From: Squalus acanthias
Taxonomy: Eukaryota
Assembly (NCBI GenBank): GCA_030390025.1
Contig: JASTWF010000334.1
Span: 372,001-436,000 of the forward strand
DNA: 64,000 nucleotides
Direction: 5' to 3'
Shown: positions 9,801 through 52,796 of the stretch, one piece after another
Numbering within the stretch: the stretch's first letter is position 1
How the letters are laid out: every line of letters begins with the position of its first letter
The notes under the pieces: generated by a model
Seen by the model: the letters and a program-made list of their open reading frames with translations, nothing else
Told to the model about the DNA's origin: nothing
Databases searched by the model: none
Made by a program: the position numbers and the translations under genes

Positions 9801-9821
9801 AAAGGGGCTATATGGGTTGCA

Positions 9822-9910: not shown

Positions 9911-9911
9911 T

Positions 9912-16171: not shown

Positions 16172-16202
<31 letters not shown>

Positions 16203-16301: not shown

Positions 16302-16612
16302 GCCCCTGCTGTGGAAATGGCTTCTGCCATTGAGAACAGCATGAATGAACCCAACACGCAACCCCTAAGCCGGCCAAGGCACCAATGATTCCAAACCCCA
16401 AACATGTATATTTTGAGTACCAAAACTTATTTATTTTACAAACTCTGTGTGTGTCATTTCTTCATGACAAACTCATACAAATAAACACAAAAAAACAGTC
16501 ATTACCATAACTGGTTCTCACAACCTGGAGATCATGTGCAAAACACTCAACAAAAGTTTGACCTCGAACCTCGGCCTTTAATAAAAAAATGACCAGCATT
16601 TTGTCACACCTC

Positions 16613-18456: not shown

Positions 18457-19496
18457 CCTTGGCTGGAAAATGGATTCACAGGTCTCTCCAGGCCGAGATT
18501 CAAGGCTGCAATGAGCAGGGTGTGGCTGGGGAGCAAGATCGCCCCCCCCCCTTTAAGAACTGGCCGGCGCCAGTGTGTCTGTGTTCCCTCGCTAACTGGC
18601 AGCACCTGCGCTGCGCTCGCGCTCTGAGTTAGCGCCTCACTCCTCGGCCTTTGCACCTTAAGACAGGTGTGCAGCGCCTGATTTAGCGCTCCAATCACCT
18701 CCCGGGGCGTTAAAAGTGAAGTTTCCAGTCAGTGGCGATAATTAGCGCCATGTGCTAATTTTTGCGCCCGGACGATATTTGCGCCCCAAACGGGGCGCGA
18801 CTGAATTTTTCCCCCTAGCATTTTGCCCACTACCGATGTCAGGCTTACCGGTCTATAATTCCCCATTTTTTCTCTACCACCTTTTTTAAATAGTGGGGTT
18901 ATATTCGCTACCCTCCAATCCATGGGAACTGTTCCAGAGTCTATAGAATTTTGAAAGATGACCAGCAATGCATCTACTATTTCTAGGGCCACTTCCTTAA
19001 GTACCCTAGGATGTAGATTATCAGGCCCTGGGGATTTATCAGCCTTGTGCATTGTGCATTCCCCTAATGCCTTTCTGTCATGTGCCTGTGCCTGTCCTAG
19101 TGCTCCTACGAAGTACTACCCCAGTGGCTGCAGCATGGCTGGTGGAAGGCTGCTGACTTTCAATGGCAAGACTGCACATGGCCTTGCAGGACGCCCTTGA
19201 GCAGCTCTGGGCGTAGAAGGCCCGGCTGTAGACTGCAACACCTTGGCATGGGCGGCAGCAGTTTGGGCTGGCTGGCTGACAGGCAACAGCAAGGGCACTG
19301 GTGGAGTGGCAGTGGTGGAAGTATGAATGCTGTCATCCTGAGAGAGGACAGCAGGTTCGTGCTCCACGGATCCACTGCCACTCCCCCTCTCCAAAGCCTT
19401 CACGTCCTTCCTAAAGTGTGGTGCCCAGAATTGGACACAGTACTCCAGCTGGAGCCGAATTAGGTTTAGCATAACTTCCTGGCTTTTGTACTCTAT

Positions 19497-22683: not shown

Positions 22684-25600
22684 TATGCCTCTATTGATAA
22701 AGCCCAGGATCCCATATGCTTTATTAACTGCTTTGTTAACCTGTCCTACCACCTTCAAAGATTGTGCACAAGCACCCCCAGGTCTCTCTGTTCTTGCACC
22801 CCCTTTAAAATTGCACCATTTAGTGTGTATGGTCTCTCCTCATTCTTCATAACAAAATGTATCACCTCACACTTCTCTGCATTGAATTTCATCTGCCACA
22901 TGTCTGCCCATTCCACCAGCCTGTCTATGTCTTCTTGAAGACTTTTACTATCTTCACCATTTACTACACTTCCAAGTTTCATGTAATCTACAAATTTCAA
23001 AATTGTGCCCTGTACCTCCAAATCCAAGCCATTAATGTATATCAAAAACAGCAGCAGTCCTAATACTGAACCTTGAGGAACGTCAATGTATACCTCCCTC
23101 CAGTCCGAAATACAGCCACTCAGAACAACTCTCTGTTTTCTATCCCTAAGCCAATTTTGTAGCTATGCTGCTACTGCCCCTTTTATACCATGGGCTTCGA
23201 TTTTGCTAACAAGCCTAATATGTGGTACTTTATCAAATGCCTTTTGAAAGTCTATATATACAACTGCCCTCATCTACCCTCTCTGTTACCTCATCAAAAG
23301 ATTTGCCCTTAACAAATCCGTGCTGGCTCTCCTTTATTAGCCCATGCTTGTCCAAGTGGCTGTTAATTTTCTCCCGGATTATTGTTTCTAAAAACTTCCC
23401 CACCATCGACGTTAAACTGACTGGCCTGTAATTGCCAGGTTTATCTTTCTCCGCCTTTTTGGACAAGGTATAACATTTACAATCCTCCAGTCCTTTGGCA
23501 CCACCCTTTATCTAAAGAGGATTGGAAGATTGTGGCCGGCACCTCTGCAATTTATACCCTTACTTCCCTCAGTAACTTAGAAGGCATCGCATCTGGTCTG
23601 GGTGACTTAACCACTTTAATTACTGCCAGCTTGTCTAGTACCTCCTCTTTATCTATTTTTATCTCATCCAGTATTCCAGCAACCTCCTCGTTTAGCTTTG
23701 GCAAAGTCCTCTTCCTTGGCAAACACCGATGGAAAGTACTCATTTAGTACCTCCGCCATGCCTTCTGCCTCCACCAACAGTTCTCAATTTAGGTCCCTAA
23801 TTGGCCCCGCAACTCCTCTGACAACCCTTTTACTGTTAACACAAAAGCAAAATACTGCAGATGCTGGAAATCTGAAATAAAAACATAAAATGCTGGAAAT
23901 ACTCAGCAGGTGAGGGAGCATCTGTGGAGAGAGAAACAGAGTTAACATTTCAGGTCAATGAGAAAGGCCATTGACCTGAAACGTTAACCCTTTTACTGTT
24001 AATATGCCTATGGAAGACTTTTGGATTCCCTTTTCTGTCTGTTAACCAATCCTCAATCCATGCTAATATATTGTGAAGGAATAAGCCATATTCAGAAAAA
24101 TACACCATTCTATGAAAATAATTCTGGCCTTTGTAACATGACAAACTCGGCTTGAAAATCTAAAAGCCTCAACAATGGAAAAGCTGTAAACCCCATACAG
24201 GCTATTGAGATAAGATAAGTTGTTGACACTGAATCAATAGCGTTGTTGAAACAGAAGCTTGGAGGCTCCTGACATCTGAGTCTTTGGAAAAAAGACAATG
24301 GTACACCCAGTTAAGATGTTTTAAAGTACACTTTGTAAACAAACACAGAAAATTAAGGAACATATGCCTTCATGGGAATGGCATCAAGTGGGGGAGACAC
24401 CAGCCGTCACATTGTTTTTGTGTTGAACTTGGAACACCTAGGAGACACGATTCTGTGTTGCAACCAGCTGAGGTGACTTAAGAATTGCATAGAAGACCTT
24501 GGTAAGAATGACATCAAATAGATGCACCTGCTGGTCACATCGTTTTTATGAAAATCTTCGAACACCTAGGGTAGCGACATCAGTCTGCAATGCTACCAGC
24601 TGAGGTGACTGTAAGAATAGCTGGGGTCAACAGAAAAATGACTAGAGATAATTAGATTACATCAGCAGAAAACTTCAAAGGAAATACCACTGGAAAAGGG
24701 TATAAAAATTGGACTTTCAAATGGCATGATAGATTCGCTGTAAAGAGGCAAAGTGATTTTTGGCTTCAGAGCTAGCTTTGTAAGTCTACAACTCTTTGTA
24801 TCTCGGGGATCAAGTTAATGTATTTGATTTTGGTGGATATCCTGGAATAAACTAAGAACTGTAAAACTAGCGAAGTTAAGATTTGAGAATAAGGATCGCT
24901 GATAATAGAATTGTAAGATTTTAGTGTTTGGAACTATTAATGTTGCGATTGAAACACTTACTGTAATTATATGTCGGTTCTTTAATAAATCTATATATTT
25001 TTAGAATTGTCTCACATAATACTTCTGTATCAAACTCGCAAACTCAATCTCTATACACTCTTTGGTGAGGAGTTGCAGAATTCTGAGGGAGTTTTCCGGA
25101 CCCTCATAATATCCGGAAGGTTACAGTCTAGCTAAACTTATTAAAAGTGCTATCTGGAGGACGGTAACATCTTCAGGTTGTTCCTTTCCTTTAGGGAGAG
25201 ATAGTCTGGACCTTTAGACCCAATTAGGGGTCTTTAGGATTCGGCTACCTCAAACTTTAGTTGAAGGTGAACGTCTGGGGAATATGCCTGATCCGGGGTA
25301 GCCGTAAAGGGGCTAGGACTAGTAATTATCCTTTCAATATTACCCCCAATCCCATGAGCCCTAATCTTGTGTAACAGCGATTGTGTGGCACCTTATCGAA
25401 GGCCTTTTGAAAATCCAAATATACTACATCCATTGGTTTCCCCTTAGCTACCCTGCTAGTTACACCCTCAAAAACCTTATCAATAGATTTGTCAAACACG
25501 ATTTCCCTTTCATAAAACTGTATAGACTCTGCCTAATCATATTATGATTTTCTACATGCCCTGTTATCACGTCCCTAATAATAAATTCTAGCATTTTCCT

Positions 25601-28058: not shown

Positions 28059-29329
28059 TGAAGGGATAATTACTAGTCCTAGTCCCTTTAGGGCTACCCC
28101 AGATCAGGCGTATTCCCCAGACGTTCACTTTCAACAAAAGTTTGAGTTAGCCGAATCCTAAAGACGCTTAATTGGGTCTAAAGGTCCAGACTATCTCTCC
28201 CTAAAGGAAAGGAACAACCTGAAGATGTTACCGTCCTCCAGATAGCACTTTTAATAAGCTTAGCTAGACTGTAACCTTCCGGATATTATGAGGGTCCGGA
28301 TAACTTCCCCAGAATTCTGCAACTCCTCACCAAAGAGTGTACAGAGATTGAGTTCACGAGTTTGATACAGAAGTATTATGTGAGATAATTCTAAAGATAT
28401 ATAGATTTATTAAAGAACCGACATGTCATTACAGTAAGTGTTTCAATCGCAACATTAACAGTTCCAAAAAGAGAACGCTATTACAATATTATTATCAGAG
28501 ATCCTTATTCTCAAATCTTAACTTCTCTACAGTTTTACAGTTCTTAGTCTTATTCAGAATATCCACCAAAATCAAATACAGTACCGCTGATCCCCGAGAT
28601 ACAAAGAGTTGTTGACTTACAGAGCCTGCCTCTGAAGCCGAGAATCGCTTTGCCCCTTTACAGCGAATTTATCATCCCATTTGTAAGTTCAATATTTGTA
28701 CCCTTTTTCAGTGGTATATCCTTTGAAGTTTTCTGCTGATGTAAGCTAATTATCTCTAGTCATTTTTCTGCTGACCCCTGCTATTCTTACAGTCACCTCA
28801 GCTGGTAGCAATGCAGAATTATGTCTCTCTAGGTGTTCCAAGTTCACCATAAAAAACAGTGGAACAGCAGGTGCATCTATTTGATGTCATTTTTACCAAG
28901 GTCTTCTGTTTGTGTCTCTTTACGAATTGTAAATTAGAACACCTCAACCAGGGTGATCTATGCAATTCTTAGTTACCTCAGCTGGTTGCAACACAGAATC
29001 ATGTCTCCTGTGTTTCATTTGATGGCATTTTTTTGAAGGCATATGTTTCTTAATTTTATGTGTTTCTTTCCGAAGTGTAATTTAGAATACCTTAACATTA
29101 TTTTCTTTCCAAAGCTTCAGACTTCAGGAGCCTCCAACCTCCTGTTTCAATAAGGTTGTTGATTCAGTGTCAACAACTTATCTTATCCCAATAGCCTTAA
29201 TGCTGTTAATAATACAGCTTCTCCATTGTTAGGTTTTTAGATTTTCAAGCCCAGTTTGTCATGTTTTAATTAGGCAAGAATTCTTTCATAGAATGGTGTA
29301 TTTTTCTGAATATGGCTTATTCCTTCACA
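28059..29329 (-). mobile_element. Solo LTR, family X (1271 bp), inverted relative to 24072-25336
   Basis: Reverse-complement homology over the full length. 4-bp TSD GCGG. Interrupts a Harbinger transposase at [18 protein letters not shown]. Confidence 0.88.
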
Positions 29330-33464: not shown

Positions 33465-35480
33465 CGGATTGTAAACTATTGTAAAAACCCATCTGGTTCA
33501 CTAATGTCCTTTAGGGAAGGAAATCTGCCATCCTTACCTGGTCTGTATGTGACTCCAGACCCACAGCAATGTGGTTGACTGTTAACTGCCCTCTGTTGTA
33601 CACTCAGTTGTACACACCCGCTACGAAAAACAATGTGAATGAAATCGGACGGATCACCCGGCATCGAACATGGCACCGGCTTCGGACACAATAATGGCAC
33701 ACCCAGCCCAGTCGACCCTGCAAAGTCCTCCTCACTAACATCTGGGGACTTGTGCCAAAATTGGGAGATCTGTCCCACAGACGAATCAAGCAACAGCCTG
33801 ACATGGTCATACTTACAGAATCATACCTTTCAGCCAATGTCCCAGATTCCTCCATCACCATCCCTGGGTATGTCCTATCCCACCAGCAGGACAGACCCAC
33901 CAGAGGTGGTGACACAGTCGGGACTGAGTGGCCTTGGGAGTCCTCAACATTGACTCCAGACCCCATGAAGTCTTCATGGGTTCAGGTCAAGCATGGGCAA
34001 GGAAACCTCCTGCTGATTACCACCTACCGCCCTCCCTCAGCTGATGAATCAGTACTCCTCCATGTTGAACACCACTTGGAAGAAGTACTGAGGGTAGCAA
34101 GGGCACAGAATGTACTCTGGGTGGTGAACTTCAATGTGCATTACAAGAGTGGCTCGGTAGCACCACTACTGACTGAGCTGGCCAAGTCCTAGGACTACGG
34201 CAGGTGGTGAGAGAACCAACACGAGGGAAAAACCTACTTGATCTCGTCCTCACCAATCTACCTGTCGCAGATGCATCTGTCCATGACAGCATTGGTAGCA
34301 GTGACCACAGCACAGTCCTGACCTCATTACAGCCTTGATCCAAACATGGACAAAGGAGCTGAATTCCAGAGGTGAGATGAGAGTGAGTGCCCTAGACATC
34401 AAGGCAGCATTAGACCGAGTGTGGCATCAAGGAGCCCTCGTAAAACTGAAGTCAATGAGAATCAGGGGAAAATTCTCCACTGGCTGGAGTCATACCGAGC
34501 ACAAAGGAAGATGGTTGTAGTTGTTGGAGGTCAATCATCACAGCCCCAGGACATCGCTGCAGGAGTTCCTCAGGGCAGTGTCCTAGGTCCAATGCTTCAT
34601 CAATGACCTTCCCTCCATCATAAGGTCAGAAGTGGGGATGTTCGCTGATGATTGCACAGTGTTCAGTTCCATTCGCAACTTTTCAGATAATGAAGCAGTC
34701 CATGCCCAAATGCAGCAAGGTCTGGATGACATTCAGGCTTGGGTTGATAAGTGGCAAGTAATATTCGCGCCACACAAGTGCCAGGCAATGACTATCTCCA
34801 ACAAGCAAGAATCTAACCACTGCCCCTTGACATTCAACGGCATTACCATCGCCAAATTCCCCACCATTAGCATCCTGGGGGTCATCGTTGACCAGAAACT
34901 TAACTGGATCAGCCACATAAATACTGTGGCCACAATAGCAGGTCAGAGGCTGGGTATTCTGTGGTGAGTGTCTCACCTCCTGACTCCCCAAAGCCTTTCC
35001 ACCATCTACAAAGCACAAGTAAGGAATGTGATGGAATACTCTCCACTTGCCTGGATGAGTGCAGCTCCAACAACACTCAAGAAGCTCGACAGCATCCAGG
35101 ACAAAGCAGCCGTTTGATTGGCACCCCATCCACCACCTTAAACATTCACTCCCTGCACCACTGGCGCACCGTGTCTGCAGTGTGTACCATCTACAAGATG
35201 CACTGCAGCAACTCGCCAAGGCTTCTTCGGCAGCACCTCCCTAACCCGTGACCTCTTCCACCTAGCAGGACAAGGGCAGCAGGCTCATGGGAACACCATC
35301 ACCTGTAAGTTCCCCTCCAAGTTACACACCATCCTGACAGCACTGTGGGAGGACCTTCACCACGCGGACTGCAACGGTTCAAGAAGGCGGTTCACCACCA
35401 CCTTCTCAAGGGCAATTAGGGTTGGGCAATAAATGCTCACCTTGCCAGCAACACCCACATCCCAGGAATGAAGTAAAAAT
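33465..35480 (+). mobile_element. CR1-group LINE of a second family (family B), internally deleted, with a SINE-core sequence at its 5' end
   Basis: EN (PDMVILTESYL, YRPP), RT (ALDIKAA.DRVWH, GVPQGSVLGP, MFADD), and a tail shared with ~1030-1190 and 60075-60240. Confidence 0.88.
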
Positions 35481-36330
35481 TATTCAGCATCATTCTTTGT
35501 TGGGTTGCAACATACTGATTAAGAAAGTTCTCCAGCACACATTTTAGGAATTCTTTACCTTCCTTGCCCTTTACTCTGTTTCCCACCACAGTCTAAATTA
35601 GGGTAATTGAAGTCCACTACTATTACTGCTCTGTTATTTTTATATTTCTCTGAAATTTGCCTATAGATTTGCTCCTCTATCTCCTTCTCACTATTTGGGT
35701 GTCTATAGTAAACATCCAGCAATCCAACAGCTTTTTTTCTATTCATTAACTCTAATCAAATATATTCTGTCTTTGAACCCTCTAGTATAGAAACATAGAA
35801 ACATAGAAAATAGTTGTGGTCACTGGTACCACAGGCAGATAATTCCATCCAGGATATCCCGGCTAGAAACATAGAAACATAGAAACATAGAAAATAGGTG
35901 CAGGAGTAGACCATTCGGTCCTTCGAGCCTGCACCGCCATTCAATGCGTTCATGGCTGAACATGCTACCTCAGTACCCCATTCCTGCTTTCTTGCCATAC
36001 CCCTTGATCCCCCTAGTTGTGAGTATTATATCTAACTCCCTTTTGAATATATTTAGCGAACTGGCCTCAACAACCTTCTGTGGTAGAGAATTCCACAGAT
36101 TCACCACTCTCTGGGTGAAGAAGTTCCTCCTCATCTCAGTCTTAAATGGCTTCCCCTTTATCCTTAGACTGTGACCCCTGGTTTTAGTTTTCCCTAACAT
36201 TGGAAACATTCTGCCCGCATCTAATTTGTCTAAACCAGTCAGGATTTTAAACGTCTCTATAAGATCCCCCCTCATTCTTCTGAACTCCAGAGGATACAAG
36301 TTCAGTTGATCCAGTCTTTCTTGATATGAT

Positions 36331-36774
36331 GGGCAACACGGTGGCATTGTGGTTAGCACTGGTGCCTCACAGCGCCAGAGACCCGGGTTCGAATCTGACC
36401 TCGGGTGACTGTCTGTGTGGAGTTTGCACATTCTCCCCGTGTCTGCGTGGGTTTCCTCCGGGTGCTCCGGTTTCCTCCCACAGTCCAAAAATGTGTGGGT
36501 TAGGTTGATTTGGCTATGATAAATTGACCCTTAGTGTTAGGGGGGATTAAATATGTGGGGTTATGGGGATAGGATGGGATATGTTCGGGGGAATTAAATA
36601 CGTGGGGTTACGGCGGTAGGGTGGGATATGTGTACTGTGGGGATTAAAGCAGGGACAGGGTACTGGATTTGGATGATCAGCCATGATCGTATTGAATGGC
36701 GGAGCAGGCTCGACGGGCCGAATGGCCTACTCCTGCTCCTAGATTCTATGTTTCTATGTTTCTATGTTTCTATG
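36331..36774 (+). mobile_element. tRNA-derived V-SINE (HE1-like) with CR1-derived 3' tail
   Basis: A box TGGCATTGTGG, B box GGTTCGAATC, V-domain ctgtgtggagtttgcacattctccccgtgtctgcgtgggtttcctccggg. Tail homologous to the CR1 3' UTR plus (TTTCTATG)n. The empty site is visible in copy 1 (cttgatatgtcag at ~6255). Confidence 0.93.
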
Positions 36775-39398
36775 TCAGACTGGCCATCCCAGGAATCAAT
36801 CTAGTGAACCTTCGTTGCACTCCCTCAATAGCAAGAATGTCCTTCCTCAAGTTAGGAGACCAAAACTGCACACAATACTCCAGGTGTGGCCTCACCAAGG
36901 CCCTGTACAACTGTAGCATCACCTCCCTACTCCTGTACTCAAATCCCCTTGCTATGAAGGCCATCATGCCATTTGCTTTCTTGACTGCCTGCTGCACTTG
37001 CCTTCCCACCTTCAGTGACTGATGTACCATGACGCCCAGGTCTCGTTGCACCTCCCCTTTCCCTAATCTGCCACCATTCAGGTAATAGTCTGCCTCCCGA
37101 TTTTTACCACCAAAGTGGATAACCTCACATTTATCCACATTGTACTTCATCTGCCATACATTTGCCCATTCACCCAACCTGTCCAAGTCACTCTGTAGCC
37201 TCCTAGCATCCTCCTCATTGTTCACACTGCCTCCCAATTTAGTGTCATCCGCAAATGTGGAGATATTACAATTAATCCCTTCGTCCAAATCATTAATATA
37301 TAATGTAAACAGCTCGGGCCCCAGCACCGAACCCTGCAGTACCCCGCTGGTCACTGCCTGCCATTCTGAAAAGTACCCATTTACTCCTACTCTTTGTTTC
37401 CTGTGTGCCAACCAGTTCTCAATCCACGTCAACACATTACCCCCAATCCCATGTGCTTTAACTTTGCACACCAATCTCTTGTGTGGGACCTTGTCGAAGG
37501 CCTTCTGAAAGTTCAAATACACCACATCTACTGGTTCCCCCCCGTCCACCCTATTGGAAACATCCTCAAAAAATTCCAGAAGATTTGTCAAGCATGATTT
37601 CCCTTTCACAAATCCATGCTGACTTGGACCTATCATGTCGCCACTTTCCAAATGGTCTGTTATGACATCTTTAATAATTGATTCCATCATTTTACCCACC
37701 ACCGATGTCAGGCTGACCGGTCTATAATTCCCTGCTTTCTCCCTCCCTCCTTTTTTAAAAAGAGGGTTTACATTAGCCACCCTCCACTCCTTCGGAACTG
37801 ATCCAGAGTCTAAGGAATGTTGGAAAATGATCGTCAATGCATCCACTATTTCCAAGGCCACCTCCTTAAGTACTCTGGGATGCAGACCATCAGGCCCTGG
37901 GGATTTATCAGCCTTCAGTCCCATCAATTTCCCCAACACCTTTTCCCGACTGATAAGGATTTCCCTCAGCTCCTCCCTCTTACCAGATCCTTTGATCTCT
38001 TTTATTTCCGGAAGGTTGTTTGTGTCCTCCACAGTAAACACCGAACCAAAGTACTTGTTCAATTGATCTGCCATTTCTTTGTTCCACATTATGACTTCCC
38101 CTGTTTCTGACTGCAGGGGACCTACGTTTGTTTTTACTAACCACTTTCTTTTTACATATTTATAGAAGCTTTTGCAGTCCATTTTAATGTTCTCCGCAAG
38201 CTTCCTTTCATATTTTATTTTCCCTGCCCTAATCAAACCCTTCGTCCTCCTCTGCTGAGTTTTAAAGTTCTCCCAGTCCCCGGGTTTGCTGCTACTTCTG
38301 GCCAATTTGTATGCCACTTCCTTGCTTTTAATACTATCCCTGATTTCCCTTGTTAGCCATGGTTGAGCACCTTCCCTTTTTTATTTTTACGCCAGACAGG
38401 GATGTACAATTGCTGTAGTTCATCCATGCGATCTCTAAATGTCTGCCATTGCCCTTCCACTGATAACCCCTTAAATATCGCTTGCCAATCTAACCTCGCC
38501 AATTCACGCCTCATACCCTCAAAGTTGCCCTTATTTAAGTTCTGGACCATGGTCTCTGAATTAACTGTTTCCTTCTCCATCCTAATGTAGAACTCCACCA
38601 TACTATGATCACTCTTCCCCAAGGGGCCTCGCACCACAAGATTGCTGATTAGTCCTTCCTCATTACACAACACCCAGTCCAGGATGGCCTCCCCTCTAGT
38701 TTGTTCCTCAACATATTAGTTTAGGAAACCATCCCTTAAACACTCCAGGAAATCCTCCTCCACCGTATTGCTTCCAGTTTGAGTAGCCCAATCTATATGC
38801 ATATTAAAGTCACCCATGATAACTGCTGCGCCTTTTTTGCATGCACCTCTGATTTCCTGTTTCATACCCTCCCCCACCTCACTACTACTGTTTGGAGGTC
38901 TGTACACAACCCCCACTAACGTATTCTGCCCTTTGGTGTTCTGCAGCTCAACCCATATTGATTCCACATCCTCCAAGCTAATGTCCTTCCTAGCTATTGC
39001 ATTAATCTCCTTTTTAACCAGCAATGCTACCCCACCCCCTTTTCCTTTTATTCTATCCTTCCTGAATGTTGAATACCCCTGGATATTCAGTTCCCAGCCT
39101 TGATTGTTCTGGAGCCACGTCTCTGTAATCCCAATCACATCATATCCGTTAACATCAATTTGCACAGTCAATTCATCCACCTTATTACGGATACTCCTTG
39201 CATTAAGACACAGAGCCTTTAGGCTTGTTTTATTAACACCCTTTGTCCTTTTAGACTTATGATTTAGTATGGCCCTTTGTGTTTCTTGCCTTTGTTTACT
39301 CGGATTTCCCTTATTGTTTCTCACCCTTCTAACATTTGTTTCTGACTGCATATTACTTCCCCCTGTTTCGCTACATAGGTTCCCATTGCCCTGCCATA

Positions 39399-40343
39399 TT
39401 AGTTTAAATCCTCCCGAACTGCCTTAGCAAATATTACCCCGAGGACATCGGTTCCAGTCCTGCCCAAGTGCAGACCGTCCCTTTTGTACAGGTCCCACTT
39501 CCCCCAGAACTGGTTCCAATGCCTCAGGTATTTGAATCCCTCCCTCCTGCACCACTGCTCAAGCCACGTATTTAATCTTGCTATCCTGTTCATGCTACTC
39601 TGATTAGCACGTGGCACTGGTAGCAACCCAGAGATTACTACCTTTGAGGTCCTACTTTTCAATTTAGCTCCTAGCTCCCTAAATTCTGCTTGTAGGTCCT
39701 CTTCCCGCTTTTTACCTATATCGTTGGTACCTACATGCACCACGACAGCTGGCTCTTCACCTGCCCTTTCCAGAATGTTCTGCAGCCGCTCCGAGACATC
39801 CTTGACCCTTGCACCAGGGAGGCAACATACCATCCTGGAATCTCGGTTGCGGCCACAGAAACTCCTGTCTATTCCCCTTACAATTGAGTCCCCTATCACT
39901 ATAGCTCTACCATTCTTTTTCCCGCCCTGCTGTGCAGCAGAGCCAGCCATGGTGCCATGAACCTGGCTGCTGGTGCCTTCCCCTGGTAGGTCATTTCCCC
40001 CAACAGTATCCAAAACGGTATATCTGTTTTGGCGGGAGATGACCGCAGGGGACTCCTGCACTACCTTCCTGATATTGCCCTGCCTCTTGGTCACCCATTT
40101 ACTGTCTGACCTAGCCTTTACCTGCGGTGTGTTCAACTCACTAAATGAGTAATCCACAAAGTTCTCGGCATCGTGGATGCTCCAGAGTGAGTCCATCCGC
40201 AGCTCCAGTGCCGCCATGCGGTCCGTCAGGAGCTGCAGCTGGACGCACTTCCTGCACACATAGTTGTCAGGGACACTGGAAGTGTCCCTGATTTCCCACA
40301 TAGCACAGGAGGAGCATGACACGGTTCCGAGATTTCCTGCCAT
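39399..40343 (-). CDS. CR1 ORF1 protein (zinc finger + SGNH/GDSL esterase-like), intact 314 aa
   Basis: CSSC...CRKC, VIGDSIV, HVGTND, DGLHL. Confidence 0.9.
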   Translation of the reverse strand: MAGNLGTVSCSSCAMWEIRDTSSVPDNYVCRKCVQLQLLTDRMAALELRMDSLWSIHDAENFVDYSFSELNTPQVKARSDSKWVTKRQGNIRKVVQESPAVISRQNRYTVLDTVGGNDLPGEGTSSQVHGTMAGSAAQQGGKKNGRAIVIGDSIVRGIDRSFCGRNRDSRMVCCLPGARVKDVSERLQNILERAGEEPAVVVHVGTNDIGKKREEDLQAEFRELGAKLKSRTSKVVISGLLPVPRANQSSMNRIARLNTWLEQWCRREGFKYLRHWNQFWGKWDLYKRDGLHLGRTGTDVLGVIFAKAVREDLN

Positions 40344-40777
40344 GACTTAACCCTTATATTACTTTATTAAGTTAAGTCCCTGAAAACAAAATATAAATCG
40401 AACCTACCTTTTAAATTCCCTCTACCCCTAAAGGTTAGAGGAGGTGGGAGGGTGGGAGACACTACTAGTGTTGTGTCTCGGGCTTAGCAACAGCTCCACC
40501 TATATACGGGTACCAATTAATTGGCCCCGCCCTCTGACTTTGACCCCTGCTGATTGATTAGAAAACTGGTTTCCACTGCCTGCTGTGCCAATTTACCGCT
40601 ACTGCAGTGTAACCTTGTTTTACTCTTCTTAAACCAACAGAATCCCAAATAGTTAACTTTTCCCCTTCACTTAAACTGCTTAAGTACTCTTATCAAGAAT
40701 GATTTAAAGAGAACTAACAATTCAAGAACTACTCCCACTTACCCAAACTCACAGCACTCTCTGCTGACTTGCACTGT

Positions 40778-43390
40778 ACATAAGGACATATGAAATAGGA
40801 GTAGGAATAGGCTATACGGCACCTGAAGCCTGCTCTGCCATTCAGTAAGATAATGGCTGAACTTCAACATCAACTCCACTTTCCCACCCTATCCCCATAT
40901 CCCTTGATTCCATTAGTGCCCAAAAATCTATCGGTCTCAATCTTGAATATACTCATCAACTGAGCATCCAGAGACCTCTGGAGTAGAGAATACCAAAGAT
41001 ACACAACCTCTGAGTGAAGAAATGGCTCCTCATCTCAGTCCTAAATGGCCAACCCCTTATCCTGAGACTGTGACCCCTAGTTCTAGAATCTCCAGTTTGG
41101 GGAAACAGCCTCTCAGCATCTACCCAGTCAAGCCCTCTGAGAATTTTATATGTTTCAATGATATCACCTCGCATTCTTCTAAAGTACAGAGAATATAGGT
41201 TCATTCTACTCAATCTCTCCTCATAGTATAGCCCTCTCATCCCAGCTATCAATTTAGTGAACCTTCATTGCACCTTCTCTAAGGCAAGTATCTTCCTTAG
41301 GTAAAGAGTCCAAAAATGTGCACAGTACTCCAGCTCTGGTCTCAGCAAAGCCCTATATTATTACAGCAAGACTTCTTTACTCTTCTACTTCAATGCCCTT
41401 GCAATAAAGGCTAACATACCATTTGCCTTCCTAATTGCTTGCTGTACCTGCATGTTAACTTTTTGTGATTCGTATAAAATGACACCTTGTATAGCTCAGA
41501 GTACCCTCTGAATACCAACACATATTGTTCACTCACCTTTAAAAAATATTCTGCTTTTCCATTCTTCTTACCAATGTGGATAATTTCTCATTTCCTCACA
41601 TTATACTCCATCTGCCACCTTCTTGCCCAATCAATTAACCTGTCTATATCCCTTTGCAGCCTCTTTGTGTCCTCCTCACAGCTTACTTTCCCACCTAGCT
41701 TTGTATCATCAGCAAACATGGATACATTACACTCGGTACCCTCATCTACGTCATTGATACAGATTGTAAATAGCTGAGGCCCAAGCCACTGATCCTTGCT
41801 GCACCCCACTAGTTACAACTTGTCAACCCGGAAATAACCTGTTTATTCCTACTCTCTATTTTCTGTCCATTAACCAATCCTCAATCCATGCCAATATATT
41901 ACCCGAATCCCATGAGCCCTAATCTTGTGTAACAATCTCTTGTGTGGCACCTTATCAAATGCATTTTGAAATTCCAGATATACTACATCCACTGGTTTCC
42001 CCTTATCTACCCTGCTAATTACACCCTCAAAACCTTGTCAGTAGATTTGTCAAACACGATACACGATTTCCCTTTCATGAAACCGTGTTGACTCTGTCTA
42101 ATCATTTTTCAAGTGGCCTGTTGCCACGTCCTTAATAATAGATTCTAACATTTTTCTTACTACTGATGTCAGGCTGACTGGTCTATAGTTCTCTGTTTTC
42201 TCTTTCCCTCCTTTCTTGAACAGCGAGGTTACACTTCCTACCTTCCAATCCGCAGGAACTGTTCTAGAATCTAGGGAATTTTGAAAGATCAAAAACAATG
42301 CATCCACTATCTCTAATACTATCTCTTTTAAAACACCAGGATTTAGGCCATCAGGTCCAGGAGATTTGTTGGCTTTTGTCCCATTAATTTCTCCAGTAAT
42401 TTTTCTTTACTAATATTAATTACTTTACGTTCCTCACTCTCATTAGATCCTAGGTTTTCCATAATTTCTGTTATGTTCTTTGTGTCTTCTAATGTGAAGA
42501 CAGATACAAAGTATATATTTAATGTCGCTGCCATTTCCTTTCTCCCCATTATAATTTCTTGTGTCTCTGCCTCTAATTGACCCATGTTTACTTTCGATAA
42601 TCTCTTCCTCTTTACTGATTACTAATTAACCCTGTCTCATTACACAATACTAGATCTAAAATAACCCGTTCTTTAGTTGGTTCCTCGACATACTGTTCTA
42701 GAAAACTTTCTCAAATGCATTCCATGAACTTCTCCTCCAAGCTACTTCTGCCAATTTGTTTTGCCCAGTCTATAGGAAGGTCAAAGTCCCCCATGATTAT
42801 TGCATTACCCTTGTTACAGGCTTCTCTAATTTCCTGATTTATACTCTGTCCAACACTATGATTAATGTTAGGAGGCCTATAAATTACTCCCACCAATGTT
42901 TTCTGCCTTTTGTTATTTCTTTGCTCCACCTATACTGATTCTCCATCATGATTTTCTGGGCTAAAATCCTTTCTCACTCCTGCCTTTATCTCATCCTTTA
43001 TTATCAGGGCGACCCCATCTCCTTTTCCATTTTGCCTATCTTTTTTGAAACTCAAGTACCCTGGAATATTTAGATCCCAACTTTGGTCATCCTGCAACCA
43101 CGTCTCAGTAATGGCTACTAGATCAAACCCATTTACCTCTATTTGTGCCATTAATTCATCTATCTTGTTACGAATGCTTTGTGCATTCAGATATAGCGCC
43201 TTTAATTTTAACTTGTTACTATTTTTCCCTGAGTTAGTTGCTAATACCCTGTTACCATTGTTAAACTCTTCCTGACGCAATCTGCTTGATCTTACCCAAA
43301 TCGCTAATCTGCTCTTCAGACTTGACTTTTCTTTTCGGATGCATAAATTTATCCTTACCTGACCCCTCCCTTCCCCTTATTAGTTTAAAG
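40778..43390 (-). mobile_element. Older degenerate CR1 ORF2 with internal deletion
   Basis: Fragmented EN and RT peptides 40956-43280 and an (acataaga)-type tail. Confidence 0.9.
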
Positions 43391-43667
43391 CCCTGTAGGA
43401 CTGTAATATTATTCTTGATCAATATTCTTGCCATCACCCCTCTATCCCTCCTGAATACATTTTAGCCAGGAATGTTTAGTTCCCATTCCTGCCCATGTTT
43501 AAGCCCGTCTCCATTATAGCCACTATATCATAACCCCATGTGGCAACTCGCGCCTGTAGCTTGTTAACCTTATTTGGAACACTCCTTGCATTAACACACA
43601 TGCATTTCAACATCATGCTAGTCTGCTTTGCTTTTTATCTCCATTTATTTCCGCAGCATAACAAATA

Positions 43668-44320
43668 CTTCCACCTCCGTAACATCGCCCGTCTCTGCCC
43701 TTGCCTCAGCTCATCCGCTGCTGAAACCCTCAACCTTGCCTTTGTTACCTCTAGACTTGACTATTCCAACACACTCCTGGCTGGCCTCCCACATTCCACC
43801 CTACGTAAACTTGAGGTCATCCATAACTCGGCTGCCCGTGTCCTAACTCGCACCAAGTCCCGTTCGCCCATCACCCTTGTGCTCGCTGACCTACATTGAC
43901 TCCAGGTTAATCAGCGCCTCGATTTCAAAATTCTCATCCTTGTTTTCAAATCCCTCCATGGCCTCGCCCCTCCCTATCTCTGTAATCTCCTTCAGCCCCA
44001 CAACCCCCCGAGATATCTGCGCTCCTCAAATTCTGCCCTCTTGAGCATCCCTGATTATAATCACTCAACCTTTGATGGTTGTGCCTTCTGTTGCCTAGGC
44101 CCTAAACTCTGGAATTCCCTGCCTAAACCTGTCCGCCTCTCTATCTCTCTTTCCTCCATTAAGACGCTCCTCAAAATCAAGCATTAGGTCACCTGCCCTA
44201 ATTTATCCTTATGTGGATCGGTTTCAAATTTTTGGTCTTAAAATACTCCTGTGCAGCGCCTTGGGACATTTTACTACGCTAAAGGTGCTATATTATTACA
44301 AGTTGTTGTTGTTGTTGTTC
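43668..44320 (+). mobile_element. L2 LINE 3' end
   Basis: FHLRNIARL...AFVTSRLDYSN..LAGLP...ITLVLADLH and a (TTG)n tail. Confidence 0.85.
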
Positions 44321-44399
44321 ATTGTACACTATTCTTTGTCCTGTTGCTGTTTGTCCCTCCTAGTTTTCTATGCACCTTGTCTCTCCTCTCTGCTGCTGT

Positions 44400-45200
44400 G
44401 TCCTAGTGCCCCTCCCCCTGCCAAATTATTTTAAGCCCTCCCCACAGCACTAGTAAACCTACCTGCATGGACATTCGTCCCAGCCCCGTCCGGTTAGTAT
44501 AGGTCCCTCCTGCCTCTAAAATGGTCCGAATGCCCCAGGAATCCGAAGCCCTCCCTCCTGCACCTCTTCTCCAAATCTGCCTGTAGGACCTCACCCCTTT
44601 TCCTACCTATGCCATTGGTTCCAACATGGACCACGACTTCTGGCTGTTCCCCTTTGTCTTGCAGAATGGCCTACATCCATTCAGTGTTATCCTTTACCCT
44701 GGCACCAGGGAGACAACATACCATTCGGGACTCACATCTGTGATTGCAGAAATGCCTGTATATTTCACTGACTATCGAATCCCCATAACAACTGCAATTC
44801 TACACTTTTTTGTGTCCCCCTGTGCAGCGGAGTCTCCCACAGTGCCATGGATTTGATTCTGATTGCATTCTCCCAAGGTGTGATCACCCTCACCAGTATT
44901 CAACAGTGAGTACTGGTTTGTGAGTGCCACACTCCCAGGGGATTGCTACACTGCCTGCCTGTTCCTGCTAGTCTGCCTGGTGGTCATCCACTGTCTCTCC
45001 ACCTGAAATCTCTGTCGCTGTGTGGTGACCACCTCCTGAAACATGCTATCCACAATCTCTTAGTATGCACTGTAGTGACATCAGAAACTCTGAGCTTGAG
45101 CACAAGCAGCTGGAAGGACTTCCTGCAGATTTGGTTTTCCAGGACACACAAAGTGTTCTGGAGTTCCCACATGGCACAGGATGTGCATCCAGCTGTCCTG
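44400..45200 (-). mobile_element. Degenerate CR1 ORF1 remnant
   Basis: Collinear similarity to 39399-40343 (MWELQ...ICRK...L, CLPGAR-like region). Confidence 0.75.
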
Positions 45201-45452: not shown

Positions 45453-47642
45453 GTCAGTTGGCGCAAATGTGACAGAAACAGTGTTTTATTGGAAATTAAT
45501 TTCAGACAAATGGATAGATCGAATGATGAGATTAATGAGCTTCTAACTAGACTCAGTGTGGTTGAGTTTTAGACTTCGGCAGGGTTCTACTTCCTGCCCC
45601 TTTTGCAGCAGTTTGCAGCCACCTTCCAGGCAAAGCTGTTTATAGAGGAACGTACAAGAGTCACAAAGATTAGATAGAGGAACGTACACTGGGTGTAACA
45701 CTGTAGATAGAGGAACGTACACTGGGTGTAACACTGTAGATAGAGGAATGTACACTGGGTGTAACACTGCAGATAGAGGAACGTACACTGGGTGTAACAC
45801 TGCAGATAGAGGAACGTACACTGGGTGTAACACTGTAGATAGAGGAACGTACACTGGGTGTAACACTGTAGATAGAGGAACATACACTGGGTGTAACACT
45901 GCAGATAGAGGAACGTACACTGGGTGTGACACTGTCGATAGAGGAACGTACACTGGGTGTAACACTGCAGATAGAGGAACGTACACTGGGTGTAACACTG
46001 CAGATAGAGGAACGTACACTGGGTGTAACACTGCAGATAGAAGAACGTACACTGGGTGTAACACTGCAGATAGAGGAACGTACACTAGGTGTAACACTGT
46101 AGATAGAGGAACGTACACTGGGTGTAACACTTTCGATAGAGGAACGTACACTGGGTGTAAAACTGCAGATAGAGGAACGTACACTGGGTGTAACACTGTC
46201 GATAGAGGATCGTACACTGGGTGTAACACTGTCGATAGAGGAACGTACACTGGGTGTAACACTGTCGATAGAGGAACGTACACTGGGTGTAACACTGTAG
46301 ATAGAGGAACGTACACTGGGTGTAATACTGCAGATAGAGGAACGTACACTGGGTGTAACACTGCAGTTAGAGGAACGTACACTGGGTGTAACACTGTAGA
46401 TAGAGGATCGTACACTGGGTGTAACACTGCAGATAGAGGAACGTACACTGGGTGTAACACTGTAGATAGAGGATCGTACACTGGGTGTAACACTGCAGAT
46501 AGAGGAACGTACACTGGGTGTAACACTGTAGATAGAGGAACGAACACTGGGTGTAACACTGTAGATAGAGGAACGTACACTGGGTGTAACACTGCAGGTA
46601 GAGGAACGTACACTGGGTGTAACACTGTAGACAGAGGATCGTACACTGGGTGTAACACTGCAGATAGAGGAACGTACACTGGGTGTAACACTGTAGATAG
46701 AGGAACGTACACTGGGTGTAACACTGTCGATAGAGGAACGTACACTGGGTGTAACACTGTCGATAGAGGATCGTACACTGGGTGTAACACTGTCGATAGA
46801 GGAACGTACACTGGGTGTAACACTGTCGATAGAGGAACGTACACTGGGTGTAACACTGTCAATAGAGGAACGTACACTGGGTGTAATACTGCAGATAGAG
46901 GAACGTACACTGGGTGTAACACTGTCGATAGAGGATCGTACACTGGGTGTAACACTGTAGATAGAGGATCGTACACTTGGTGTAACACTGCAGATAGAGG
47001 AACGTACACTGGGTGTAACACTGTAGATAGAGGATCGTACACTGGGTGTAACACTGCAGATAGAGGAACGTACACTGGGTGTAACACTGTAGATAGAGGA
47101 ACGTACACTGGGATTAACACTGTAGATAGAGGAACGTACACTGGGTGGAACACTGCAGATACAGGAACGTACACTGGGTGTAACACTGTAGATAGAGGAA
47201 CGTACACTGGGTGTAACACTGCAGATAGAGGAAAGTACACTGGGAGTAACACTGCAGATAGAGGAACGTAGACTGGGTGTAACACTGCAGATAGAGGAAC
47301 GTAGACTGGGTGTAACACTGTAGATAGAGGAACGTACACTGCGTGTAACACTGTAGATAGAGGAATGTACACTGGGTGTAACACTGCAGATAGAGGAACG
47401 TAGACTGGGTGTAACACTGTAGATAGAGGAACGTAGACTGGGTGTAACACTGTAGATAGAGGAATGCACACTGGGTGTAACACTGTAGATAGAGGAACGC
47501 CCACTGGGTGTAACACTGTAGATAGAGGAACGTACACAGGGTGTAACACTGCAGATAGAGGAAAGTACACTGGCAGTAACACTTTACATAGAGGCACGTA
47601 CACTGGGTGCAATACTGCAGATAAAGGAATGTACACTGGGTG

Positions 47643-48151
47643 TGATGTAAGAAAACTATTAGGCACTTGGTCTAAGCATCAAACAAAGCTTTAATCAACT
47701 GTTTTACAACATGGAGGTCCAGTTGTGTCCTTTAATTGTTCCTGTTAAGAATATTCTGCGCAAGCTGGGCCTCTATCTGTCCAAAAATGTGCGGGTTAGG
47801 TTGATTTGGCTATGATAAATTGACCCTTAGTGTTAGGGGGGGATTAAATATGTGGGGTTATGGGGATAGGATGGGATATGTTAGGGGGAATTAAATACGT
47901 GGGGTTACGGGGGTCGGGTGGGATATGTGTACTGTGGGGATTAAAGCAGGGACAGGGTACTGGATTTGAATGATCAGCCATGATCGTATTGAATGGTGGT
48001 GCAGGCTCGACGGGCCGAATGGCCTACTCCTGCTCCTAGATTCAATGTTTCTATCTATGTTTCTATTTATACGCTCCCTTGATAGTGCCACCCGCAGGCC
48101 ACTCAGTATTATTTCACAAGTCTTTCTTTCATGACTTACAGAGTGCTGTCA
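47643..48151 (-). mobile_element. Small solo LTR (~225 bp net) interrupted by a 5'-truncated HE1-like SINE (+, ~47779-48066)
   Basis: On the minus strand it reads TGACAG...GTATAAATAG[SINE]AGGCCC...ATTAAA...ACATCA. Flanks GGGTG/GTGTG fit a 5-bp TSD with one mismatch. The SINE part matches 36482-36774. Confidence 0.7.
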
Positions 48152-48730
48152 GTGTGTTACACTGTAGATAGAGGAAGGTACACTGAGTGTAAAACTGCAG
48201 ATAGAGGAAAGTACACTGGATGTAACACTGTAGATAGAGGAACCTACACTGGGTGTAACACTGCAGATAGAGGAACGTACACTGGGTGTAACAGTGTAGA
48301 TAGAGGAACGTACACTGTGTCTAACATTGCAGATAGAAGAACGTACACTGGGTGTAACACTGTAGATAGAGGAACGTACACTGGGTGTAACACTGCAGAT
48401 AGAGGAATGTACACTGAGTGTAACACTGTAGATAGAGGAACGTACACTGGGTGTAACACTGCAGGTAGAGGAACGTACACTGGGTGTAACACTGCAGATA
48501 GAGGAACATACACTGAGTGTAACACTGCAGATAGAGGAACATACACTGAGTGTAACACTGTAGAAAGAGGAACATTCACTGGGTGTAACACTGTAGATAG
48601 AGGAACGTACACTGGGTGTAACACTGTAGAAAGAGGAACGTACACTGGGTGTAGCACTGCAGATAGGGGAACGTACACTGGGTGTGATACTCCAGTTAGG
48701 GGAACGTACACTGGGAGTAACACTGCAGAC

Positions 48731-50186
48731 TGTAGGGGGTGGTGTGTGGGGGTCAGGTTTACCTCTGACTCTGTGAGCGGTTCGAATCGCTCCCATGCCC
48801 CTGGTTCTAGACCTTGGATTTATTTGGGGGTTGTGAACAAAGATGCAGTAGAGATCAGGTTTTGATGAAAGACTTTTGACTTTTATTCAAGAAAAGGTAA
48901 CAAACTTAAAACACACTTAATGCTTAAACACAGGTTGGGGAACACACGGTACAGGCGAGGGAGAAGAACCATATACAAAAAAAAACCTTATCCCTCCCAA
49001 ATCCCACTGCCTAGCTAGGTTTGATTCGAGAAGATCAGGGATAATGCTCACCAAATGACAGTTCTTGACAGTTAAGAGTTAGGGTTTAGAGTCTTTTGAG
49101 TAAAAGATTTCGTAAGGCCCTTTTTGCCGCGAGGTTTCCGATGGTCACTGAGGCGGTCGCTCTGGTCTCTTGAACTGCTGGCTTTCTTTGTTGTATTTCT
49201 TTCTGTTGAACTCTGCCTCTGTTTAAACTGTCTTCTTCCGAGCTGTGGAACTGCCTTCTTGCAGAACTGTGGAACTCCTTGCTGCTTCTTCCTTGCTTCT
49301 CCTGAACTCTGTAACTCCAGCCCTGACTTCTGCTGAAAACAGGCTTTTCGATTGAACTGCAGAACTGCCTTCTGTTGAACTTGAACTGTTTTTACTGTCT
49401 GATGGGCCTTCAATTATACTAAATTGAAGTGGCCTTATCTACCCCAAATCAAATCCCGATCATTGTAAGACCTCGTTAACAGCAACGACTTTACTAGCGT
49501 GTTAACTGGTTTTGTAAATGTGTGAAGTGGTTTCCGGATAGCTCCATCCTGTCGATCTGTTGTTTAATCGGAGTTTGAATTGTCCTCATGTTTTGGGTTT
49601 CTTGACTGGGCCTAGGGCTTCTATCTTTCTGCATGTCTTTAATGGGTTCTGTAAGTGTCAAATGTTTTTTTTTGGAATGGTTTGCATCCTGTCAATCTTC
49701 TTGGCTAATTGGTTTTTGATGGGATGATGGGCTGTGAAGCTGTGTACTGGACGTTTTATTGTTAGGAATTCTGTTTCGACCTGGGGATTTCAAAAGGGTC
49801 TTGGTTTATTCATTTTTTTGGATGTGTTTGTGAGGTTTGGGGTGAGGCTCTTCCTCCTTGGTTGGATTGCAGTGCAAACATCTCCCAGACAGCTTGGCTC
49901 GGTCCCAAAAATCAAAAGCTGTCCATTGCCTCACCACACCCTTTCCTGCAGCCTGTGTTTCTGTGACTGCAGGTTTACCCAATGGCCCTTTTAAAAAGGT
50001 GTCTTATCATCAAAAAGTCATTTTCCTCAGGGTTTTTCTTCCCTGATCGTTAAAAATGTCCAAAACTGAGGTTTTGACCTCAAATTCCTTCATTTAGGCA
50101 CCATCATTCCAAATTCGTGTTGAGATCCAAAACTAACGCCCTTTAGGGTTCTATTCGAGATTCTGGGGGATTTTACGAAGCCTACA
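48731..50186 (-). mobile_element. Solo LTR-like element, family Y (1456 bp), copy 1
   Basis: TGTAGG...CCTACA inverted termini. AATAAA on the minus strand at ~48882-48887. Flanked by duplicated (A)GAC. Confidence 0.75.
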
Positions 50187-52796
50187 GACGGAGGAACGTA
50201 CACTGGGTGAAACACTGTAGCTAGAGGAACGTATACTGGGAGTAACAGTGCAGTTAGAGAAACGTACACTGGGTGTAACACTACAGATAGAGGAACGTAC
50301 ACAGGGTGTAACACAATAGATAGAGTAACATACACTGGCTGTAACACTGTAGATAGAGGACCGTACACTGGGTGAAACACTGTAGATAGAGGACCGTACA
50401 CTGGCTGTAACACTGCAGATAGAAGAACGTACACTGGGTGTAAGACTGTAGATAGAGGACCGTACACTGGGCGTAACACTGCAGTTAGAGGAACGTACAC
50501 TGGGTTTAACACTGTAGATAGAGGAACGTACACTGGGAGTAACACAGTAGTTAGAGGAACGTAAACTGGGTGTAACACTGTAGATAGAGGAACATACACT
50601 GGGTGTAACACTGTAGATAGAGGAACGTACACTGTGTGTAACACTGCAGAAAGAGGAATGAACACTGGGTGTAACACTGTAGATAGAAGAACGTACACTC
50701 GGTGGAACACTGTAGATTGAGGAAAGTACACTGGGTGTAACACTGTAGATAGGGGAACGTACACTGGGTGTTACACTGTAGATAGAGGAAAGTACACTGG
50801 GTGTAACACTGTAGATAGGGGAACATACACTGGGTGTTACACTGTAGATAGAGGAAAGTACACTGGGTGTAACACTGCAGATAGAGGAACGTAAACTGGG
50901 TGTAATACTGCAGATAGAGGAACGTACACTGGGTGTAACACTGCAGATAGAGGAACGTACACTGGGTGTAACACTGCAGATAGAGGAACGTACACTGGGT
51001 GTAACACTGCAGATAGAGGAACGTACACTGGGTGTAACACTGTAGATACAGGAATGTACACTGGGTGTAACACTGTAGATACAGGAATGTACACTGGGTG
51101 TAACACTGTAGATACAGGAATGTACACTGGGTGTAACACTGTAGATACAGGAATGTACACTGGGTGTAACACTGTAGATACAGGAACGTACACTGGGTGC
51201 AACACTGTAGATAGAGAAACGTACACTGGGTGTAACACTGTAGATAGAGGAACGTACACTGGGTGTAACAGTGTAGATAGAGGAACGTACACTGGGTGTA
51301 ACACTGCAGATAGAGGAACGTACACTGGGTGTAACATTGTAGATAGAGGAACGTACACTGGGTGAAACACTGTAGATAGAGGAACGTACACTGGGTGTAA
51401 CACTGTAGATAGAGGAACGTACACTGGGTGTAACACTGCAGATAGAGGAACGTACACTGGGTGTAACACTGTAGATAGAGGAACGTACACTGGGTGTAAC
51501 ACTGTAGATAGAGGAACGTACACTGGGTGTAACACTGTAGATAGAGGAACGTACACTGGGTGTAACACTGCAGATAGAGGAACGTACACTGGGTGTAACA
51601 CTGTAGATAGAGGAACGTACACTGGGTGTAACACTGTTGATAGAGGAACGTACACTGGGTGTAACACTGCAGATAGAGGAACGTACACTGAGTGTAACAC
51701 TGTAGATAGAGGAACGTACACTGGGTGTAACACTGTAGATAGAGGAACGCACACTGGGTGTAACACTGTAGATAGAGGAATGTACACTGGGTGTAACACT
51801 GTTGATAGAGGAACGTACACTGGGTGTAACACTGCAGATAGAGGAACGTACACTGGGTGTAACACTGTAGATAGAGGAATGTACACTGGGTGTAACACTG
51901 TTGATAGAGGAACGTACACTGGGTGTAACACTGCAGATAGAGGAACGTACACTGGGTGTAACACTGCAGATAACGGAACGTACACTGGGTGTAACACTGT
52001 TGATAGAGGAACGTACACTGGGTGTAACACTGTAGATAGGGGAACGTACACTGGGTGTAACACTGTAGATAGGGGAACGTACACTGGGTGTAACATTGTA
52101 GATAGAGGAACGTACACTGGGTGTAACACTGCAGATAGAGGAACGTACATTGGGTGAAACACTGTAGACAGAGGAACGTACACTGGGTGTAACACTGCAG
52201 ATAGAGGAACGTACACTGGGTGTAACACTGCAGATAGAGGAACGTACACTGGGTGAAACACTGTAGACAGAGGAACGTACACTGGGTGTAATACTGCAGA
52301 TAGAGGAACGTACACTGGGTGTAACACTGCAGACAGAGGAACGTACACTGGGTGTAACACTGCAGACAGAGGAACGTACACTGGGTGTAACACTGTAGAT
52401 AGAGGAACGTACACTGGGTGTAACACTGTAGATAGAGGAACGTACACTCGGTGTAACACTGTTGATAGAGGAACGTACACTGGGTGAAACACTGTAGACA
52501 GAGGAACGTACACTGGGTGTAATACTGTAGACAGAGGAACGTACACTGGGTGTAACACTGCAGATAGAGCAACGTACACTGGGTGTAACACTGTAGACAG
52601 AGGAACGTACACTGGGTGTAACACTGTAGATAGAGGAACGTACACTGGGTGTAACACTGTAGATAGAGGAACGTACACTGGGTGTAACACTGTAGAAAGA
52701 GGAACGTACACTGGGTGTAGCACTGCAGATAGGGGAACGTACACTGGGTGTGATACTCCAGTTAGGGGAACGTACACTGGGAGTAACACTGCAGAC

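Follow-up and report, generated by a model that had tools for sequence, protein, structure and literature searches.

A 52-bp stretch of a Harbinger transposase gene that forms the 3′ flank of one CR1 element (copy 1) recurs 30,065 bp away inside the 3′ end of a second, closely related CR1 element (copy 2), where it separates two CR1 tails. That this flank reached copy 2 as a templated insertion through DNA break repair, and not by retrotransposition, has in our view about an even chance of being correct. The event is most likely a one-off of a known kind, a scar left by a single repair between two repeats that are both dead. The likelihoods attached to all readings below are judgements and not computed values.

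A Harbinger flank between two CR1 tails

Self-comparison of the window (the whole 64,000-nucleotide stretch of DNA that was analysed) matched positions 5748–5799 to 35813–35864 at 51 of 52 bases, and a 26-nt piece of the 52-mer occurs exactly twice in the window, compared with zero occurrences in 100 shuffles. The recurrence between two tails, from which a preliminary description of this DNA had started, is thus real. A 30-nt pattern taken from the 52-mer had no matches in metagenome contigs, a result that is uninformative for a vertebrate repeat.

Read along the plus strand, the 3′ end of copy 2 consists of flanking DNA, an outer tail (35788–35813), the captured 52-mer (35813–35864), an inner tail (35864–35897) and then the CR1 body, with the tails and the captured piece all assigned to the minus strand. 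The outer tail had been placed at 35787–35812 in the preliminary description; the tail itself stands, and its coordinates are refined here by one base. Its 26 nt hold more than octamer repeats, comprising two octamers together with the last bases of the 3′UTR up to the foot of a conserved hairpin, and it is probably the original 3′ end of copy 2. The inner tail (34 nt) comprises three octamers plus terminal 3′UTR bases, and outer tail and inner end are identical across 27 nt. A single G is common to the end of the outer tail and the 52-mer, a microhomology of 1 nt.

At the donor site (5748–5799, minus strand), the 52-mer contains the last 14 codons, the stop and 7 nt of 3′UTR of a Harbinger (HARBI1/PIF-like) transposase. 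An AATAAA signal (5659–5664, minus strand) lies downstream of the transposase stop, 84 nt past the end of the captured flank. The version in copy 2 starts exactly where the 4-kb homology between the two copies stops, ends before reaching this signal, lacks poly(A) and gives way to a CR1 3′ end. Across flank and inner tail together (83 bp), it differs from copy 1 at 3 places where about 1 would be expected (P = 0.09); the capture therefore does not look recent, and looks as old as the copies themselves.

A search of sequencing runs with the region 35480–36330 listed 24 runs, 20 of them containing part of the region. The best shares were 0.68–0.69 in one organism (2 studies) and 0.45–0.51 in four others, values near the 0.53 calculated for the CR1 part alone, so that the listing offers a lead and no more. 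No RNA runs were among the runs listed for this region.

The donor site within a transposase gene

On the minus strand, copy 1 is preceded by an acidic linker of the transposase (9801–9921) ending EEAEGRMQPI*PLS and followed by SRDILDGIICLWYQ*; linker and 52-mer share one frame on either side of the insertion. Both flanking peptides align without gaps on the C-terminus of the transposase homolog P0253, with 14 of 28 residues identical by manual count and the stop at the same position; the C-termini of P0241 (HARBI1 according to its source) and P0244 have the same spacing as that of P0253. The query for this comparison was the last 80 residues of the other Harbinger transposase in the window, and all 42 C-termini (1 plus 41 homologs) were compared. 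The host of copy 1 has the acidic linker and the C-terminal motif of HARBI1-like proteins, as PIF/Harbinger transposases do.

Because the match to P0253 continues gapless across the insertion, copy 1 sits in a transposase gene with no loss of target sequence. Its target-site duplication, AGAAA, occupies 9799–9803 (plus strand), overlapping the CR1 body by 2 nt. The partner at 5800–5804 agrees at 4 of 5 bases in copy 1 and at all five in the version held by copy 2 (35865–35869). Since the captured version has the base predicted by the duplication and copy 1 has changed, the capture preceded the change in copy 1. The preliminary description had recognised the 52-mer as genomic flank of copy 1; the in-frame transposase C-terminus on both sides of the insertion and its match to P0253 confirm this identification, and support a move of the flank from the copy 1 site into copy 2.

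The tail of copy 1 differs from that of copy 2 at positions 5800 and 5824. These belong to two octamers that are not adjacent, and in each of them the same phase has gone from A to C, which is unlikely to have happened independently. Slippage, conversion or an error in the consensus could be the source. We set the two positions aside as a marker of the template, as the target duplication implies that at least one of them arose after insertion.

The window contains a second Harbinger-like element at 15087–18552, whose DDE_Tnp_4 transposase lies on the plus strand, together with a Myb/SANT ORF convergent to it. It also contains an inverted repeat (24072–25336 and 28059–29329; 1.3 kb, 84% identity) whose arms flank some 2.7 kb in which CR1 and Harbinger-like fragments are mixed, and, at 45540–57100, large arrays of a 33-bp repeat whose non-repeat spacers recur too.

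Structure of the two CR1 copies

Copy 2 (35898–40775, minus strand) is apparently full-length, with a candidate start near 40775, a 5′UTR, an ORF1 beginning with the ATG at 40343 and an APE-RT ORF2. A GDSL/SGNH esterase in ORF1 is a defining feature of CR1, and the ORF1 of copy 2 contains this domain (PF13472, E = 9e-14); its ORF2 contains the APE endonuclease (PF03372, E = 3e-12) and reverse transcriptase (RT; PF00078, E = 2e-31) domains expected of a CR1 element. The 3′UTR hairpin followed by octamer repeats, the lack of poly(A) and the short target duplication are likewise those of CR1. Named RT homologs include proteins of ray, skate, shark, bird and turtle; the close ones come from rays, a skate and a shark, which points to repeat-rich vertebrate DNA of a probable cartilaginous fish.

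Copy 1 (5800–9800, minus strand) is 5′-truncated inside ORF1, and copy 2 has 464 bp more at its 5′ end, covering the 5′UTR and the start of ORF1; no second copy of this 5′UTR was found in the window. ORF2 is broken in copy 1, and both copies carry stops and frameshifts. Copy 1 was most likely truncated at birth, judging from its 5-bp duplication and the intact Harbinger frame. A later 5′ deletion would need to begin no further than about 2 nt from the insertion boundary, which makes truncation at birth far likelier.

A candidate target-site duplication of copy 2, GTA (35785–35787, plus strand; partner at 40776–40778), is weak evidence at 3 bp. It would enclose both the element and the captured flank, an arrangement equally expected had the flank come later. 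Residues that would span the empty site of copy 2 were found in 0 of 240 homologs, and the 3-bp duplication is thus without independent support.

Copy 2 alone contains a SINE-like insertion of 446 bp (36325–36770, plus strand) with a CR1-type hairpin and octamer tail. This element lies antisense in copy 2 and has a second match at 47779–48066 (95.5% over 292 bp). Copy 2 itself belongs to a nest of three layers, lying between the tail of an older CR1 (35480–35787) and the decayed endonuclease fragment of a third (40776–45200), the upstream part of which was not found in the window. In the 5′UTR of copy 2, upstream of the ORF1 start, closely spaced donor-like and acceptor-like splice motifs occur at 40380–40410.

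Relationship between the copies

The two copies lie in the same orientation, on the minus strand, as direct repeats 30 kb apart. They align in two blocks, 5748–6263 with 35813–36328 at 99.0% and 6260–9800 with 36771–40311 at 98.6%, giving 98.7% overall. With the 446-bp insertion left aside, 53 events separate them over 4,053 bp, made up of 50 substitutions, 2 single-base indels and an adjacent pair scored as a single event. ORFs hold 47 of the substitutions, of which 36 are non-synonymous and 11 synonymous, approximately the ratio expected under neutrality. The best break point for a divergence step along the copies is at 9228, with higher divergence 5′ of it, and is not significant (p = 0.14).

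Both copies have Asn in place of Asp in the YLDF motif of the RT (37511–37513 in copy 2, minus strand; 7000–7002 in copy 1). Among 163 aligned segments from 120 homologs, this position is Asp in 159 and Asn in none; among 120 short homologs, it is Asp in 118, Asn in one and a gap in one. We take this Asp to be catalytic, and the shared change, which lies 1.2 kb from the tail, is probably inactivating. The nearest relatives returned by two protein searches reach 83–84% identity, too distant to settle whether the Asn is a trait of the subfamily or a mark of these two copies.

Both copies are also one base short in ORF2 at 7857–7858 and 38369–38370, where their letters differ. This missing base, which may reflect one common event or two separate ones, is not counted as shared.

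Hairpins at the joints

The outer joint of copy 2 falls exactly at the foot of the CR1 3′UTR stem, as judged from the equivalent position of the conserved stem-loop at 35897–35935 (minus strand), whose base is the final nucleotide before the tail segment. The stem-loop is supported by RNA folding and by pairing across nine ends. The whole 111 nt gave z = −1.94, with 7 of 200 shuffles equally stable. When the window's nine CR1-type ends are compared, 93% of cells are paired and both sides have changed in 5 cells, a level reached by 1 of 500 shuffles and compared with 39–56% in slid controls; in this count the structure came from copy 2, two of the nine rows are copies 1 and 2 themselves, and the rows were picked from BLAST hits. 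The far end of the captured flank lies 2 nt past a 6-bp hairpin, and the 52-mer as a whole is not unusually structured (z = −1.19, 23 of 200 shuffles as stable).

At the foot of the 3′UTR hairpin an RNA-copying polymerase would probably pause, and an RNA trimmed at its 3′ end could terminate at the 6-bp hairpin. At the same 6-bp hairpin, a nascent DNA strand may fold back and release its template. We judge that the placement of the hairpins weighs a few-fold toward reverse transcription and is the main result against repair. The 3′UTR hairpin also folds as DNA (z = −3.15, 0 of 200 shuffles), so this point is softened, not removed.

Origin of the captured flank

The preliminary description explained copy 2 as a reverse-transcribed read-through RNA of copy 1. 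The part of this idea that holds is the movement of the flank from the copy 1 site. What it missed is that copy 1 ends at 9800, within ORF1, whereas copy 2 extends to about 40775: one copy 1 RNA cannot yield copy 2, because the 464 bp are missing from copy 1, at a site that has lost no host residue. RNA from copy 1 would run into the Harbinger linker and not into a CR1 5′UTR, and copy 1 therefore cannot be the sole template. Simple read-through is also contradicted by the end of the captured flank, which lacks poly(A) and lies 84 nt short of AATAAA. To remain viable, an RNA model must add a second template switch, to a full-length RNA. Copying at the DNA level, which the preliminary description had opposed to its own idea, agrees no less well with the anatomy and with a distance of 30 kb.

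From the observed sequence anatomy, origin of the flank, length difference and junction bases, we infer a repair pathway of five steps. A full-length CR1 copy 2 would already have been present with the outer tail as its end, a role we assign to this tail because it retains terminal 3′UTR bases and adjoins the candidate duplication. A break or stalled fork near the 3′UTR hairpin of copy 2 would then have freed a minus-strand 3′ end, and this end would have invaded copy 1, the nearly identical direct repeat 30 kb off. Synthesis would have passed the tail of copy 1 and 52 nt of Harbinger flank, releasing just after the small hairpin. Finally, the new end would have been joined to the kept outer tail through the 1-nt overlap, either by one-sided invasion (reportedly described by Belmaaza and Chartrand in 1994) or by synthesis-dependent strand annealing (SDSA) with a non-homologous ending. 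To account for the shared Asn, either the copied tract would have extended beyond 1.2 kb into the body or both copies would descend from one RT-dead parent.

Homology-guided invasion predicts an insert that starts at the homology edge, as this one does. One repair event would account for the start of the insert, the native-looking outer tail, the longer copy 2 and the nearby donor, and taken as a whole we regard this reading as evenly poised between right and wrong. Against it stand the joint at the hairpin foot, the old-looking event and the lack of a significant divergence step marking the end of a tract; the shared Asn, moreover, demands either the long tract or the dead parent. Measured against the ranges given in the available text of Pace et al. 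(PMC2671141), 30 kb exceeds the 5-kb class, the 1-nt overlap is below 2–9 nt and the 26–27-nt duplication is above 4–21 nt.

There is a substantial minority chance that, instead, a CR1 reverse transcriptase, an enzyme that selects its RNA through hairpin and tail, began copying at the tail, came to a halt at the hairpin foot and moved over to flank-bearing nucleic acid from the copy 30 kb away; this grade jointly covers two jump targets, a read-through RNA and a primer strand belonging to a daughter insertion under way. The former amounts to a repaired version of the preliminary idea, a double jump during insertion of copy 2, and we think it unlikely while giving it real weight. An active CR1 enzyme primed on the tail would copy 26 nt, stall at the hairpin and switch to the 3′ end of a copy 1 read-through RNA ending 52 nt into the flank; flank, tail and body would then be copied before a homology switch to a full-length RNA supplied the 5′ end. 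Such a course would explain the joint at the hairpin foot and, if the RNA had been trimmed, a flank ending 2 nt after a hairpin. The 1-nt overlap suits similarity-free jumps of the kind that the accessible part of PMC12203849 describes for R2, and in the text available from PMC4476161 template switching is reported for both L2 and RTE and, in a single unconfirmed case, for CR1. A dead copy 1, mobilised in trans, would have passed on the shared Asn, and an event as old as the copies is what one would see, the higher divergence 5′ of about 9228 being non-significant. The price is two jumps, a promoter for the truncated copy 1, an RNA ending short of AATAAA and a landing within 30 kb, which the cytoplasmic RNA step of the LINE cycle (PMC4760211, as far as its available text goes) would presumably make rare. 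Templated pieces in tumour L1 insertions typically derive from within 15 bp of the site in the portion of bioRxiv 2024.08.27.596794 at hand. No CR1 3′ transduction turned up in a literature search of incomplete coverage, with most subscription papers outside it, and this negative accordingly counts for little. The other jump target implies that the full-length copy 2 was the parent of the truncated copy 1 and that, during the synthesis of copy 1 close by, the primer-plus-cDNA strand of this daughter served as repair template for a nick at the 3′ end of copy 2, the mother thereby gaining the target flank of its daughter. We consider this improbable. Descent from full-length to truncated is the normal direction, the shared Asn and the neutral-looking divergence (36 non-synonymous, 11 synonymous) fit sisterhood, and one coupled event would cover both age and proximity; the same neutral divergence is equally expected of copies from one parent elsewhere, and the scheme needs a local hop together with a simultaneous donor break. 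L1 cDNA intermediates do recombine with homologous breaks in cells according to the available text of PMC13526784, which has translocations, an inversion and cDNA insertion at a break, but not capture of donor flank.

Three further explanations have little claim. Two 4-kb repeats at 98.7% identity and 30 kb apart could be mixed by assembly or polishing, and the odd single-base differences near 7857/38369 and in the tail of copy 1 are compatible with such an error; a mis-join would be expected to reproduce copy 1 unchanged, however, and the captured piece differs from it at 3 places and keeps the duplication-predicted base that copy 1 has lost, so that we see an artefact as very improbable. Had copy 1 been the only template in a plain 3′ transduction and lost its 5′ 464 bp afterwards, one RNA and one intramolecular jump would cover the double tail and the shared Asn. 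This reading requires a deletion starting within about 2 nt of the insertion boundary that spared both the duplication and the host frame, where the usual course is 5′ truncation at birth through microhomology, and it still requires a local landing; its chance is slighter again. That the 52-mer is a standard part of the 3′ end of this CR1 subfamily is scarcely credible, for it encodes transposase in a frame that continues on both sides of the copy 1 site, and its 26-nt piece occurs at just these two places in the window.

Implications

If break repair is the correct reading, what we describe is one dead locus, yet one from which it follows that repair between neighbouring LINEs can closely mimic 3′ transduction, including the flank, the second tail and an enclosing target duplication. 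Calls of 3′ transduction in repeat-rich genomes would then need a check of donor length and of alleles. Were reverse transcription responsible, CR1 would be capable of mobilising flanks, for which the incompletely covered literature yielded no description, and tail-recognising LINEs would gain a poly(A)-independent and locally biased transport of flanking DNA, possibly from daughter to mother. The order tail, flank, tail is a searchable signature that offers a genome-wide test between the two readings.

Comparison with known systems

L1 3′ transduction proceeds by read-through to a downstream poly(A) signal. As there, copy 2 carries, within its own bounds, the downstream flank of another copy in the same orientation, taken from beyond the donor tail and followed by a second tail. 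Unlike there, the element's own 3′ end, not poly(A), forms the second tail, the flank stops before the poly(A) signal, and the acceptor is longer than the donor, so that its element part is not contained in the donor.

Template-switching chimeras of stringent LINEs, such as U6-L2 (PMC4476161), and R2 jumping (PMC12203849), as far as the available texts describe them, likewise link foreign sequence to a brief stretch of LINE 3′ end and show a small target duplication. In those cases foreign RNA ends the insert, whereas in copy 2 another tail and a whole element follow, and the source locus is 30 kb away. The extra 5′ bases of ZfL2-2 are often derived from flanking sequence in the accessible part of PMC4245944.

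Synthesis that switches and returns (FoSTeS/MMBIR) is reviewed in PMC4888836, and the portion available shares with copy 2, as does one-sided invasion, a switch to a nearby template, short synthesis and a return with duplication at the junction. Entry in copy 2 would be through long homology and not microhomology, and the outcome is one small insert and no complex rearrangement.

The available text of Pace et al. 2009 (PMC2671141) describes human repeats interrupted by a total of 1,136 candidate inserts measuring 50 bp or more; the donor lay within 5 kb for 824 of them, and poly(A/T) occurred in none of the 39 proximal inserts examined. Strong locality and absence of poly(A) characterise these repair-mediated duplications, which are found in chicken and zebrafish too and have been attributed, as a proposal, to SDSA (same source). 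The insert in copy 2 resembles them as a piece of at least 50 bp (here 52 bp, interrupting the 3′ end and without poly(A/T)) inside a transposable element, with a donor on the same chromosome and with microhomology and duplication at the joint. It differs in the shorter overlap, the longer duplication and one end at the edge of a 4-kb homology, where their joints show 2–9 nt of microhomology, a deletion, filler or a 4–21-nt duplication, and its donor distance falls within the class that, in the text available, Pace et al. could not confidently classify. With a donor beyond 5 kb and junctions outside the published ranges it is not filed among repair-mediated duplications, but it may work like one.
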